Shown in pieces: positions 16,313 to 21,200 of a stretch of 64,000 nucleotides of DNA (within the stretch, counting starts at the first letter, position 1; every line of letters starts with the position of its first letter). The DNA is taken from NCBI GenBank assembly GCA_023259135.1, contig JAHFQX010000007.1:7529-71528 (forward strand). The letters run 5' to 3'. This DNA is from Betaproteobacteria bacterium. Its GTDB lineage: Bacteria; Pseudomonadota; Gammaproteobacteria; Burkholderiales; JAHFQX01. The translations under genes and the position numbers were made by a program. The notes beneath the pieces were generated by a model. That model was given only the letters and a program-made list of their open reading frames with translations, searched no databases and was not told the origin of the DNA.

Positions 16313-16548
16313 TTCCTCGATCCGGAGAACCTGCTCGCGCCCCTGCAAGCGGCCTCCTGCATCTACCGCATCGCGTTCGGGCCGCGGGCCGGGCGCAAAG
16401 TGCTGAGCTGGCGATACGCCGCGCGGCGTGCGGCGCCTTAGCGCGCATGAGTTGGGCGCGCTTGCTCAAGCGGGTGTTCGACATCGATATCGAACGCTAC
16501 CCGTAGTGCGGCGGCAAGATGAAGGTCATCGCGGCGATCGCCACGGAC
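16313..16548 (+). pseudogene. IS91-family (Y2, rolling-circle) transposase, middle and C-terminal fragments
   Basis: Own translation. One frame reads FLDPENLLAPLQAASCIYRIAFGPRAGRKVLS (16313 onward). A second frame reads ARMSWARLLKRVFDIDIERYP-stop(TAG 16504-16506)-CGGKMKVIAAI. Both strings match conserved mid and C-terminal blocks of IS91/ISCR transposases as I know them. Frames are broken and most of the gene is missing. Confidence 0.6.
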
Positions 16549-16655
16549 GCCGGCGCGGCGCGTGGAACTTTTTCAGGCGGCTTGATACACGAACGCGGAG
16601 CCGACGGGGGGGCTCGGCGTGCGCTCGTGCCCGAGTGCGGATTGCGGGAAAGCGG
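16549..16655. repeat. Left copy of ~110-bp direct repeat (tail following the IS91 fragments)
   Basis: gccggcgcggcgcgtggaactttttcaggcggcttgatacacgaacgcggagccgacggggggggctcggcgtgcgctcgtgcccgagtgcggattgcgggaaagcgg. Recurs at 21086..21200 in the same orientation with a few substitutions and one ~8-nt indel. Contains GC-rich hairpin-forming segments (gagcc...ggctc, ctcgg...ccgag). Confidence 0.85.
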
Positions 16656-16878
16656 ACGCAGCGAAGGGCGAGATTCTGCAGACAACAGCGGAACTTGCGT
16701 GAATTGTCACGCGATTGATGCCATCATGGGCGGAGGGATAGAGTGTCCCTGTGCGGAAAATTATGTTTAAAGTTCCTATGCCCAGCCGGCTCTAGGCAAC
16801 GCCACGAGAATGGCGGCGAACGGCGGAGCGGCGGGACTGATTATTTCAACGAGGCCCGACCCCATCGATCAAACACCA

Positions 16879-17886
16879 TCAGGCAATCGCCCTCGCCTGC
16901 GGACGGTTGATCGCGCCCTGAGGGGTCTCGCCGCGCAGCGCCTGGAGGATGCTGTGCGCCGCCTCAAGTTCGATATCGAGTCGCACCGCATCCACCGCCG
17001 AGCCGATGTGCGGCGTGAACAGAGTGCGCGCCCTGTCGTCGAGTAGCGCCTGCGGGATCGCGCGCGGCCGGTCGGGGCGCGCCCATTCTTCCATCTCGAA
17101 CACATCGGCGGCGTAGCCAGCCAACCGGCCGGAAGCGAGCGCCGCGACCACCGCCTGTTCGTCGACAACCGAGCCGCGGCAGGTGTTGATGAGGAAGGCG
17201 CCCGGTTTCATCTGTGTGAGCGCGCCGGCGTCGATCAGGTGCAGAGTCGCGCCGCAGTACGGAACCAACGGCACCACGAAGTTGCTCGCAGCGAGCAGCG
17301 CCGCCAGATCCATACGCTCAAGGTTCCAGCGCGTTTCCTTCTCCTTCGGCAGCCCCACCGGATCGGAATACAGCACGCGCATTCCGAAGCCCGCCAGACG
17401 TTGGGCGACGGCCTGGCCGACCGCGCCCATGCCGATTATGCCCAGCGTGTTGCCGGCAAGGCCGGCACCGTAGAGCACCGGGCGCCAACCGTTGAACTGG
17501 CCGCTGCGCACAAAGCGGTCGCCGGCCGGCACGTTGCGCGTCAGGCCGATCAGCAGGCCGATGGTCAGTTCCGCGGTCGGGATGGTGAGCAGATCCTGGA
17601 CAATGGTGACCCAAACGCCGCGACGGGTACACGCATCGACATCGTAGTTGTCATAGCCTTTGAGTGCGCAGGCGACCACGCGCAGTTGCGGGCAGGCGCG
17701 CAGGAATGCTTCGTCTACGCTGTCCGGCATGAAGGTCATGATGGCGGCGGCGGCCCGCGCCCGTCGCAGTATCTCTTCGGGCGCCAGAGTCTCGGGGCTG
17801 GCGTTGGGGATAACTTCGCCGTACCCAGCCAGCAGCGCAATGACCTCGGGGTGCACGCGATGAGTGAGGACGATTTTCGGTTTCAT
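16879..17886 (-). CDS. ptxD: Phosphite dehydrogenase (NAD-dependent phosphite:NAD+ oxidoreductase; D-2-hydroxyacid dehydrogenase family)
   Basis: 335 aa. NAD site [16 protein letters not shown]; catalytic Arg/Glu/His contexts [33 protein letters not shown]. The N-terminus [19 protein letters not shown] and overall string follow Pseudomonas stutzeri PtxD as I recall it. Last gene after a PhnCDE-type transporter, which is the ptxABCD layout. Confidence 0.8.
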
Positions 17887-17903
17887 CCGGCGTTGCTCCG
17901 GTC

Positions 17904-18710
17904 CTATTTGAATCGTTTTCTCAGCATGCCGCTGAAGGCATCCACCAGCGTCACCATTGCCAGAATCACCAGCAGCAACGCCGAGACTTCCTGGTACTGC
18001 ATAATGCGCAGCGAGCCCATCAACTCGAAACCGATGCCGCCGGCGCCGACCATGCCCATCACGGTCGAGGCGCGGAAGTTGTACTCCCAGCGGTAAATGG
18101 AGATGTCCGCCATCTGCGGCAGCACCTGCGGCAGGACACCATGCAGGACCACCTGCAGCGGCGTGCCGCCAGCGGCGCGCGCCGCCTCGATCGGCGCTTC
18201 GTCAGTGTGCTCGATGGCCTCGGCGAAGAATTTTCCGACCATGCCGATCGAGTGCAGGCCGAGCGCCAGCACCCCGGGCAAGGCGCCGAAACCGACCGCC
18301 GCGACGAAGATGATGCCCAGGATCAGTTCCGGCACGGAGCGCAAGCCGTTCAAAATCCCACGTGCCACCTGATAGACGGCCGGGTGCGGTGTGGTGTTGC
18401 GTGCCGCCAAGAACGCGAGTGGCACCGATAACGCCACCGCCAGCGCCGTGCCGGCCACACTCATGGCAAGCGTGTCGAACAGCGGCTTGATCCAGCCGCG
18501 CCAGCCGCCGAAATCAGGCGGCAGCATCTCGCTCAGCAGGCTGAACAGGCTCGGCACGCCCTCCGCCAGGCGCGCGCCGTCGAACAGCCCGACATAATAA
18601 GCGCACACCAGGATGACGGAGAACACCGCGGCAAGCCGCAGCGCATCGCGATTCCAGGCACTCTGCTCAGCGCTAAGTAACTGGTCGTAGTTCTGAAATG
18701 GGGTCGTCAT
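17904..18710 (-). CDS. ptxC: Phosphite/phosphonate ABC transporter permease (PhnE family)
   Basis: Track ORF 17904..18773 trimmed to ATG 18710 ([12 protein letters not shown]), 8 nt after the ptxB stop. Multi-TM; PhnE-type EAA-like loop [24 protein letters not shown]. Confidence 0.75.
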
Positions 18711-18717
18711 CCGTCGT

Positions 18718-19584
18718 TTACTGGAAGTTGGCCAGGTCAATCTTGAGCAGGGGTCCGAGGTTGCGCACCACATCGTACTGCCGGTCGGTGATAACGTCGA
18801 AACCCTGGGCCTTGAACGACTTGAGCACCGCAGGGTCCTTGAGGTTCAGGAACACGCTGCGGATCTTTTCCTTGAGCTCCGGCTTCAGGTTAGAGCGCAT
18901 GGTCCACGGGTACTGCGGGAACGGCTTGGAGTACTGAAGAACCTTTACCTTGTCGAGACTCACGATTTTGCGCTCCACCAGCGACTCGAAGATCGGCCGG
19001 CTCAACCCCCCGGCCTGGGCGTGACCGTTCTGCACCGCCATAGCCACGGCGTCGTGCGAGCCGACGAAGTGTTCCTCGTAGTCGCGACCGGCATTGAGGC
19101 CCTGCTCTGCCAGCACCGATTTCGGGATCAGATGGCTGGAGGTTGAAACCTTGTCGCCGTAGGCCATGTTCTTGCCCTTGATATCGCCGATCACCTTCAC
19201 GCCGGACGAGATGTTTGCGATCACCACCGATTGGTAGGTGGTGCTGCCCTTGACCTTGAGCGCCGCAAACGGCTCGATCTCGCTCTTCTGACGCGCGAGC
19301 ACGTAGGACAGCGGTCCGAAGTAGGCCAGATCGAGGCGGCCGTGACGCATGGCCTCGATCATGGACGAGTAATCGGTGGTGACGATCAATTCGATTTTCT
19401 TGCCAAGCTGCGCCTCGAGATAATCCTTGAGCCCCTGGTTGTTCTTGATGACGGTGGAGGCGTTCTCGTCCGGCAGCAGTGCCACTTTCAAAGTCTGCGG
19501 GTCCGGATCGGGCGCGGCCTGCACGAATGCCGGAAGCAACAGGCCAAACAGCGCGGCAGTGATGAGTGTCAGCAGTTTTTTCAT
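18718..19584 (-). CDS. ptxB: Phosphite/phosphonate ABC transporter periplasmic binding protein (PhnD family)
   Basis: 288 aa. Signal peptide [23 protein letters not shown]. PhnD-like [19 protein letters not shown], and a YS..P motif near the C-terminus. Confidence 0.75.
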
Positions 19585-20396: not shown

Positions 20397-20514
20397 TCGC
20401 CTCCTGGACACCGGGATTACGATTCGATTTCACGATCAATCACGGGATTGGTTCGAGTAAATCCGATCAGCAAGCGGATTGGGTAAGCACCGCCGGGCAT
20501 GATGCGCTCACTTT

Positions 20515-20532
20515 GTGACGGTTTGATGAAGT
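20515..20532 (-). promoter_or_regulatory. Candidate Pho box upstream of ptxA (weak)
   Basis: Minus strand reads ACTTCAT-CAAA-CCGTCAC: two 7-mers with 11-bp periodicity and an A-rich spacer, against consensus CTGTCAT-AAAA-CTGTCAC (4/7 and 6/7 matches). Lies about 120 nt upstream of the ptxA ATG. Confidence 0.25.
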
Positions 20533-20622
20533 CGATATCCAAAAAATGATGGCCAGCTTGAGCAGGCGGGTGTGTCGCAAGATCAATGTCTTACGCTGGT
20601 CAGGCCTGGTTATCGACAGATC

Positions 20623-20705
20623 GTAGGGCGCATTAGCCGCAAGCGTAATGCGCCGAACAAAATCACATCCGGCGCAATGCGCTGCGCTTATTGCGCCCCG
20701 TCACG
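20623..20705. repeat. REP-like hairpin doublet (REPIN-like)
   Basis: GTAGG-GCGCATTA-gccgcaagcg-TAATGCGCC (9-bp perfect stem) at 20623..20654 and GGCGCAAT-gcgctgcgctt-ATTGCGCC-ccgtcac (8-bp perfect stem) at 20671..20705. Read in reverse, the second resembles the first, so the pair is inverted. The GTAG head is typical of REP elements. Track ORFs 20572.. and 20648.. read through it (VGRISRKRNAP...), which is typical REP pseudo-coding. Confidence 0.5.
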
Positions 20706-20721
20706 CCGTTTCCGGCAGGCC

Positions 20722-21085
20722 ATGGAATATAGCCCACTGCCGCGCTGCGGCGATCCGAGCTTGCCCCAATTCGTCAAAGACGAGTTCGATGCGTTTCTCG
20801 AATGTGGCATCCTTGCCCACGACGTCCTGTGGGTGCGCTGCGCCGGGTGCGGCCACGAGAAGCTGGTGGCGTTTTCCTGCAAGCGGCGTGGCATTTGCCC
20901 CTCGTGCGGGGCACGCCGCATGGCGGAGAGCCCCGCCTGGCTGGTTGATCGAATTATCTCCAAGGGGCCAGTGCGCCAATGGGTGCTCTCGTTCCCGATC
21001 CCGCTGCCCGGTATTGCAGATCATCCACCGGGTGATTGCGACGCATCTCATCAGGCAGGCGGGCGTCAAACCCAGTGAAGCGGCC
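20722..21085 (+). pseudogene. IS91-family (Y2) transposase, N-terminal fragments incl. zinc-binding domain
   Basis: Track ORF 20572..21078 contains LPQFVKDEFDAFLECGILAHDVLWVRCAGCGHEKLVAFSCKRRGICPSCGARRMAESPAWLVD...VRQWVLSFPIPL (IS91 zinc-binding N-terminal domain). After a frame change, ORF 20648..21295 continues IIHRVIATHLIRQAGV. The gene then breaks off into the repeat tail. The extreme N-terminus and the whole catalytic Y2 domain are absent. Confidence 0.65.
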
Positions 21086-21200
21086 GCCGGCCGCGGCGCG
21101 TGGAACTTTTTCAGGCGGCTTGATACGCGAACGCGGAGCCGATGGGAGGGCTCGGCGTGCGCTCGTGCCCGAGTGGGCGAGTGGGATTGCGGGAAAACGG
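21086..21200. repeat. Right copy of ~110-bp direct repeat
   Basis: gccggccgcggcgcgtggaactttttcaggcggcttgatacgcgaacgcggagccgatgggagggctcggcgtgcgctcgtgcccgagtgggcgagtgggattgcgggaaaacgg. Same orientation as 16549..16655. Homology ends at ...gcgggaaa(a/g)cgg in both copies. Confidence 0.85.

Follow-up and report, generated by a model that had tools for sequence, protein, structure and literature searches.

A ptxABCD operon between relics of an ISCR-type insertion sequence in a Betaproteobacteria bacterium: a candidate rolling-circle capture unit in decay

We analysed a stretch of 64,000 nucleotides of a Betaproteobacteria bacterium (contig JAHFQX010000007.1, positions 7,529 to 71,528 of the forward strand; hereafter the window) in which a phosphite-assimilation operon, ptxABCD, lies between decayed pieces of an insertion sequence (IS) of the IS91 family, ISCR type (Table 1). 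In the open reading frame (ORF) list of the window, the operon appears as four intact ORFs on the - strand between positions 16879 and 20411, and it is oriented tail-on to the IS. The ptxD product is 81-94% identical to proteins named phosphonate dehydrogenase by their sources. Moreover, the four genes are colinear with those of 80 ptx loci, and the transporter trio and PtxD are encoded in one operon, as in ptxABCD systems. Judging from these homologies, ptxDCBA is a fair name for the four genes. As they are intact, the host could probably draw its phosphorus from phosphite.

The operon and the IS pieces form an island of distinct composition. Along the GC profile, the GC content climbs from about 57% to 63-68% over roughly 16200-21800, and it averages 63.7% in the island compared to 58.9% in the remaining window, that is, the host. 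Because of this difference, and because a native ptx locus with 93% DNA identity exists elsewhere (see below), the ptx cassette is regarded as foreign to its host.

Table 1. Features of the ptx island, and segments that differ between strains (window positions; aa, amino acids, numbered for the transposase on the protein of its relative L003; UTR, untranslated region)
Feature	Position	Strand	Evidence
Island left edge, leftmost 67 bp; possible poorly conserved transposase remnant, about aa 225-247 (tentative)	16231..16297	+	
Left copy, transposase middle fragment, aa 248-284, in the Y2_Tnp region	16298..16408	+	tblastn 78% over 37 aa; blastn 87% to L003
Left copy, C-terminal fragment, aa 419-452, with in-frame TAG	16426..16540 (aa match 16426-16530)	+	tblastn; blastn 81%
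Left repeat copy: last 13 codons (PRTPARRVELFQAA, stop 16583-16585) and first ~70 bp of the 3' UTR	16541..16655	+	
Rest of left 3' UTR, ending in an oriIS-type terminus GATAGAGT..GGAAAATTATGTTTAAAGTTCCTAT(GC), with conserved hairpin GCGTGAATTGTCACGC	16656..16781	+	
Putative captured donor segment, 3971 bp	16782..20752	-	DNA identity to L177
ptxD, 335 aa, NAD-dependent phosphite (phosphonate) dehydrogenase homologue	16879..17886	-	Pfam 2-Hacid_dh_C and 2-Hacid_dh
ptxC, ATP-binding cassette (ABC) permease, 268 aa as called in sister contigs	17904..18710	-	TIGR01097 PhnE, 300 bits (cut-off 217)
ptxB, periplasmic binding protein	18718..19584	-	PF12974, E=2.7e-70; TIGR01098 (PhnD-type), 250 bits (cut-off 112)
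ptxA, ABC ATPase	19587..20393	-	TIGR02315 (PhnC), 296 bits (cut-off 266)
160-bp insertion relative to the native locus, with a pair of hairpins like repetitive extragenic palindromes (REP) at 20627-20654 and about 20672-20700	20537..20696	.	absent from L177
Right copy, zinc-binding domain, aa 44-137	20749..21027	+	PF14319; tblastn 81%; junction alignments
Right copy, aa 142-169, out of frame after a strain-specific 35-bp deletion and bounded at its end by the 922-bp deletion joint	21008..21091	+	tblastn 93%
Right repeat copy: last codons (stop 21121-21123) and initial part of the 3' UTR	21080..21200	+	
GC-rich DNA with a DUF3653 (phage protein) gene fragment at about 21387-21542	21201..21646	+	PF12375, E=3.8e-9; phrog_2188; GC profile
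Segment missing from L001 and L089	16349-16451		
Segment missing from L091	16296-16420		
35 bp of the right copy, kept by L001, missing from the window and L002			
Segment missing from L182	21395-21611		

To identify the IS, the concatenated transposase fragments were searched against proteins. This returned thousands of Zn_Tnp_IS91/Y2_Tnp proteins, with the best long match on a contig (L003) whose transposase gene is intact but for one stop codon. The reconstructed L003 protein has 489 aa; its Zn_Tnp_IS91 domain spans aa 33-124 and its Y2_Tnp domain (E=6.6e-32) aa 169-394. It shares 49% identity with an ISCR-type transposase of the IS91 family from clinical resistance plasmids. All IS fragments of the window match it at 77-93% amino-acid identity and lie on the + strand. 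First, Zn_Tnp_IS91 (PF14319) is found in the ORF at 20572-21078 with 54.4 bits for a cut-off of 26.3 (E=1.3e-14). Second, the middle and C-terminal fragments, which are too short for Pfam matches, were placed by comparison with L003; Y2_Tnp (PF04986) itself does not register in the window, where only aa 248-284 of the domain span 169-394 are left. Third, both copies have lost the HUH region (..NIHLHGLVLDGVY, about aa 183-195) as well as aa 285-418, and a tblastn search of the window with a related transposase as query gave no further pieces. The right copy also lacks its first ~43 codons and the entire 5'/terIS end, and is joined to a remnant of phoX. The window therefore holds relics of a member of the IS91 family (ISCR group), not a functional member. 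This bears out two claims of the initial annotation, namely that the fragments are of IS91/ISCR type, as seen from the PF14319 match, the comparison with L003 and the Y2_Tnp domain of L003, and that the decay of the transposase involved deletions, frameshifts and a stop codon.

The initial annotation had called for a search for the intact parent element. The near-intact relative L003 settles where the tail of the element lies; no parent turned up in the plasmid collection: a distant DNA search with the left IS region gave no matches there, and the right IS region gave just 67% matches to ISCR-type transposase genes. Around the transposase gene of L003 itself, we noticed what is left of another, distinct IS91-type zinc finger (..LAFSCKRRYFCPRCHQKRV..) just upstream, at 9900-9990, and a ParDE toxin-antitoxin pair just downstream, at 11632-12130.

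Both flanks of the operon carry a direct repeat. The repeat finder reported a core of 84 nt (16554-16637 and 21092-21175) with 96% identity, which extends in gapped form to 16541-16655 and 21080-21200 with one 7-8-bp indel. A 27-nt core of it occurs exactly twice in the 64-kb window for 0.00 expected occurrences. The initial annotation was thus right that the two flanks share a near-identical direct repeat, and that this is not a repeat dispersed in the host. It had also described the repeat as a GC-rich tail; the repeat is there, but it is not a separate element, as both tails consist of aa 477-489, the stop codon and the 3' UTR of the transposase gene. Indeed, when read in another frame, the tail ends in PRTPARRVELFQAA-stop and matches PRTPARRFDLFQAA-stop of L003, in which the tail adjoins the transposase 3' end as had been proposed. 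The right tail carries a slippage-type duplication of 7-8 bp (CGAGTGGGCGAGTGG) at 21168-21183, which is common to the sister contigs L002 and L006 and absent in L001. Once such strain-specific changes are removed, the two tails collapse to one identical ancestral sequence. Finally, the homology of the repeats had been said to stop at the same point. The two copies do have a common left edge, which is a coincidence of two different deletions, but to the right the left copy continues for about 125 bp, up to the terminus of the element.

To locate this terminus, we scanned metagenomes with the L003 protein and obtained 80 further loci, five of which (L129, L136, L149, L151 and L168) share their 3' UTR with the left copy. 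In these five relatives the terminus is conserved as GATAGAGT-N-GAAAA-N-GTTTAAA-N-TAT and the flanks diverge after TAT, and we placed the oriIS end of this clade at ..GTTTAAAGTTCCTAT. The homology of the left copy to the relatives runs about 125 bp past the repeat, and its terminus ends at 16777-16779, at most at 16781, so that the whole 3' UTR (16586-16781) is present and closes 197 bp past the stop codon. The same pattern is seen in a plasmid ISCR-type element (L174), which ends about 225 bp past the stop codon with ..GTGAAAAGGTGCTTTATACTTCCTATACTCC. We had also considered the point at which L003 diverges (about 16717) as the end of the IS and rejected it, since other copies run to about 16781; the 3' UTR of L003 follows the clade consensus until some 60 bp short of the terminus and is truncated or diverged there. 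When folded as single-stranded DNA, the 3' UTR is not better overall than shuffled sequences (z = -1.6) and shows local hairpins only. As for the right copy, it breaks off at about 21196, and roughly 125 bp, the oriIS terminus included, are absent from it.

The limits of the cargo could be read from a native locus. The closest PtxD beyond this species (94% identical) is encoded on a JGI contig, L177, where ptxABCD lies between phoX and a DUF3300 gene, without any IS and with an even GC content of 61-64%. The DNA identity between L177 and the window is 93.2% over 16782-20536 and 92.9% over 20697-20752. On the left, homology starts at 16782, 0-3 bp past the oriIS terminus and 97 bp from the ptxD stop codon, and the oriIS/cargo joint at about 16781/16782 reads GTTTAAAGTTCCTATGCCCAGCCGGCTCTAGG. 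On the right, homology ends at 20752 in the final ~50 nt of phoX, which meet transposase codon ~44 in a joint that reads GCTGCGGCGATCCGAGCTTGCCCCAATTCG. Hence the donor segment comprises about 97 bp downstream of ptxD, the ptxD, C, B and A genes, the region upstream of ptxA and the last ~50 nt of phoX. Homology shared with the 80 other ptx loci is confined to 16874-20439, and since phoX adjoins ptxA in none of these 80 loci, the donor was of the L177 lineage.

Within this segment, the 160-bp insertion that L177 lacks contains the REP-like palindromes GGCGCATTAGC..GCGTAATGCGCC and GGCGCAATGCGC..TTATTGCGCC, with GTAGG ahead of them, and folds as a DNA hairpin with z = -3.4. We considered a REPIN of the host, but the hairpins occur a single time in the 64-kb window and are thus no obvious host repeat; the insertion may be a REPIN-like element that came from the donor.

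Next, we asked how the two IS copies came to look permuted, with the middle and C-terminal fragments to the left of the operon and the N-terminal ones to the right. Comparison with the relative shows that the right joint is an internal deletion of 922 bp at a 7-bp microhomology, CCGGCGC: the relative reads ..GCGGCCACCGGCGCCGTC.. on the N-side and ..GGACGCCGGCGCGGCG.. on the 3' side, and the window reads ..GCGGCCACCGGCGCGGCG.. at the joint. The right copy therefore once ran from the full N-terminus to the 3' UTR. On the left side, the sister contig L001, which carries the same island at the same site with 98.6% identity, has an unbroken C-terminus, ..KVIAAIEEPAVMERILTHLGLSAQPPPRTPARRVELFQAA, from which the window misses 59 bp encoding EEPAVMERILTHLGLSAQP. 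Other losses also differ between strains (Table 1), and the segment 16298..16408 is fully or partly deleted in L001, L089 and L091. Because of the 922-bp deletion on the right and the strain-specific 59-bp deletion on the left, the ancestral layout was two very similar direct IS copies around the ptx cargo. The initial annotation had taken the circular permutation as evidence for a product longer than one unit. This does not hold, as the 922-bp and 59-bp deletions explain the order, and the apparent permutation is a by-product of ongoing small deletions.

The same arrangement of direct copies, that is, a C-terminal remnant or oriIS followed by a spacer and a further copy, recurs in the relatives L118, L129, L131, L168 and L173, and tandem or partial direct copies may be common in this IS clade. 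As in the window, the piece that lies upstream in L129, L131 and L173 is either what remains of a C-terminus or an oriIS end. The direct copies are separated by short spacer DNA, which in L173 includes an IS3-type transposase and in L131 a PIN-domain gene.

ISCR elements have a terIS with a promoter 5' of the transposase gene and an oriIS 3' of it; in ISCR1 the oriIS region measures 232 bp, and the variable cargo is found next to oriIS, at a distance of 0-1211 bp (PMC6218425, PMC13393415). Both distances found here, the gap of 0-3 bp to the cargo and the 97 bp to the ptxD stop codon, are within this range. Moreover, the layout is the one that a capture model predicts, with the oriIS meeting the start of the cargo and the 5' side of the second copy facing its other end. 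Since an intact oriIS-type terminus abuts the first captured base, rolling-circle capture is plausible. Taking these observations together, we consider it reasonably likely that the region is a decayed ISCR-type capture unit, of which the ptx operon would be the cargo. The proposal of rolling-circle capture in the initial annotation thus stands as a reasonable mechanism. The outer ends of the island, with oriIS lost from the right copy and terIS from both, are uninformative on initiation and termination.

The data show the family of the relics, the identity of the tails, the exact limits of the cargo, the deletions and the variation between strains; the rolling-circle steps and the route into the genome that follow are inferred. 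In the donor, an IS copy would have had its 5' side toward phoX-ptxA. Rolling-circle replication would begin at the 3' oriIS and go back through the transposase gene, miss the stop at the 5' end of the IS and read through from ptxA to ptxD. The displaced strand would then close on oriIS, creating the joint between oriIS and the DNA downstream of ptxD at about 16781/16782. The second IS copy could arise either by recombination of the circle with another IS copy or by replication going on round the circle. Finally, the unit would have entered the host, where both copies would have died by small deletions, often at short GC-rich repeats.

Several points weigh against capture. First, the ends of the elements are incomplete: neither copy has a 5' end with terIS (the left one starts at about codon 225-248), and to the right of the cargo there is no end toward it that would be competent for transposition. 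Second, the borders are mute. Members of the IS91 family move by rolling-circle replication and leave no target-site duplication. The target signature of IS91 is of the GTTC/CTTG type, and no target-site signature is readable at the ends of the island; these outer borders fall within IS sequence or in unrelated DUF3653 DNA, from which the entry route cannot be read. Among same-species contigs, no empty site was found, as all of them carry the island or break at the repeat or the border. Third, the association has been seen at this site only. This IS is absent from all 80 ptxD loci of other species in reference genomes, no IS lies near the closest metagenome PtxD relatives (94%, 91% and 87% identical), and we found no circular, tandem or second-context copy of the IS-ptx unit among these assembled sequences. 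The search of other genomes for the ptx+IS91 unit that the initial annotation had suggested gave no second-host copy among the 80 ptxD loci and the metagenome relatives. Fourth, had one active IS inserted twice independently, the outcome would look no different. Fifth, as of 2018 ISCR transposition was without experimental demonstration (PMC6218425).

Separately, a Sulfurimicrobium metagenome-assembled genome (L016, 13727-14608) contains a distantly related IS91-like gene (27% identity) at a distance of about 2.7 kb from the ptxD of that genome; the two could be connected or not.

If the same active IS had inserted twice in the donor, once downstream of ptxD and once within phoX or close to it, and the block had then been transferred by a genomic island, a plasmid or recombination and had decayed, the structure would be composite-like and would owe nothing to rolling-circle capture. 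We regard this history as unlikely. It accounts for a final structure of two direct copies, and it would be helped by the abundance of IS relatives, often in several copies per contig, by the DUF3653 phage or island DNA that adjoins the unit and by the failure to find a circle or a tandem. Nevertheless, it requires that the IS inserted twice in one direction within 4 kb and that the right copy lost its 5' end later. To our knowledge, IS91-family elements do not move cargo as composite transposons, which counts against it as well. In addition, ISCR capture predicts just such a cargo, which starts exactly at oriIS and extends to a second copy, whose 5' side it meets (PMC6218425).

We find it quite improbable that the island is a single rolling-circle product, slightly longer than one unit of a circle (tail-ptx-transposase), which was inserted as such and whose ends are the island borders. 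Such a product should place an oriIS next to host DNA, whereas the right copy ends about 125 bp early and enters DUF3653 DNA, and the 5' end of this copy is an internal truncation at codon ~44 rather than an IS end. Moreover, the permuted order that suggests a product of this kind is secondary, as it results from the 922-bp microhomology deletion and the strain-specific 59-bp deletion. Some features do agree with it: before the deletions the island would have exceeded one unit by about 0.9 kb of IS present in duplicate (from about aa 225 into the 3' UTR), the common ancestor of the sampled strains had two identical tails, the island begins on the left within the transposase gene, and oriIS abuts the cargo. 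However, this model is inseparable from a circle followed by recombination, and on these data a product longer than one unit is indistinguishable from circle-plus-recombination or from two insertions. Finally, the idea that the 110-bp repeat belongs to the host or to a separate small mobile element inserted twice into IS91 remnants, or that the arrangement is an assembly artefact, fits with both repeats beginning beside transposase frame discontinuities and with metagenome contigs breaking at the repeat, but is refuted by its colinearity with the gene 3' end and UTR in L003, L129, L136, L149 and L151, by the unbroken C-terminus that leads into it in L001, by its mere two copies in 64 kb and by identical junctions in independent assemblies from several samples.

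The borders of the island deserve a closer description. On the left, the border is at 16230/16231, within or just ahead of transposase-derived sequence: the segment 16231..16297 weakly resembles KRILRLLTRQGHL of the relative at both the DNA and the protein level. The contig L087 (Logan SRR22388045) tracks the host up to 16230 and then departs, and L001 begins at 16223. Past 16230, L087 reads GAGTTTGAAGCAAGGATC, and this alternative continuation, of 18 nt, is not present in the window. The same sample, SRR22388045, also contains the right side of the island (L182); a different insert or a larger deletion in the L087 strain is possible. On the right, the border lies somewhere between 21200 and about 21650-22030, past the DUF3653 fragment. 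The DNA at 21201..21646 probably belongs to the same or to an older island, and the DUF3653 DNA may be a leftover of another element integrated at the same site. The host lineage is poorly sampled, and the closest relative of the flanking ankyrin protein is only 52% identical. Near the left border, a sister strain (L088, 8742-8784, at about 16090 of the window) has an insertion of ~43 bp in the ankyrin gene/island spacer. Also, an ORF of 193 aa at 15903-16484 on the - strand crosses the host/island border and is a called gene in the sister contig L006 (2098-2679); it has no Pfam match, overlaps the transposase remnants on the other strand and is probably not a real gene.

We then compared the locus with known systems. 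Like ISCR elements, it has a transposase of the Zn_Tnp_IS91 and Y2_Tnp (HUH) family, an oriIS region of about 200 bp 3' of the gene that ends in ..TTTA.A..TTCCTAT.C, a cargo close to the oriIS end and repeats in direct orientation that bracket this cargo, and it likewise lacks the 5'/terIS end. Unlike ISCR elements, it lies in an environmental, chromosomal host, it carries a four-gene metabolic operon instead of a resistance gene, and the distance between its relative L003 and the plasmid ISCR-type transposase tested is large (49% identity). For ISCR1, the typical example is the complex class 1 integron, arranged as 3' conserved segment (3'CS)-ISCR1-resistance gene-3'CS2. In the window, the bracketing repeat is the IS itself and not the 3'CS, and both copies are dead. 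Furthermore, outward promoters such as those described for ISCR1 cannot drive the ptx operon, which is tail-on to the IS here.

The proposed event also resembles the one-ended transposition of IS91 and IS1294, in which a start at oriIS and a missed stop at terIS carry DNA past the 5' end (PMC6218425), except that at the eroded ends of the present island no target or termination signature can be read. As in composite transposons and IS26-type translocatable units, the cargo is between two direct copies of one IS. Unlike those units, the IS belongs to the IS91 family, without inverted repeats and with HUH chemistry, and neither copy here has two functional ends: no intact transposase is left, and the sole surviving oriIS-type end faces the cargo from the left copy.

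Phosphite-oxidation genes have been found beside transposases before. In Ca. Smithella phosphorovis LM1 a ptx-ptd contig carries an IS91-family transposase, and in Desulfotignum phosphitoxidans a ptx island lies between two transposases, both of which were taken as horizontal transfer (bioRxiv 10.1101/2020.12.28.424620; PMC4046663). The locus described here shares with these two cases the adjacency of phosphite-oxidation genes to IS91-family or other transposases. It differs from their dissimilatory ptx-ptd clusters in that its ptxABCD operon is assimilatory, and in that the ends of the element, the exact limits of the cargo and a native locus of the donor type are defined.

A more ambitious interpretation, to which we give little credence, is that L177 and the window show the states before and after a natural gene capture by an ISCR-like element, in which the joint at 16781/16782 would be the point of termination and closure of a rolling-circle read-through and the island a directly integrated concatemer longer than one unit. 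If true, it would provide natural, sequence-level evidence for an ISCR mechanism that rests mainly on inference. The case leaves knowledge of the mechanism unchanged; the capture of adjacent genes by ISCR/IS91 elements is already well described.

ISCR-like elements of the IS91 family are best known for antibiotic-resistance genes in clinical plasmids. If the ptx operon was indeed captured as we propose, such elements would also be seen to move ordinary metabolic operons between environmental bacteria, here with phosphite assimilation as the cargo. What this case adds is an environmental ISCR-like clade, a ptxABCD cargo, break-points at the level of single bases and a view of decay. With the native locus L177, the oriIS-type terminus and the sister strains together, the break-points of the putative capture can be read to a few bases and its decay can be traced deletion by deletion.

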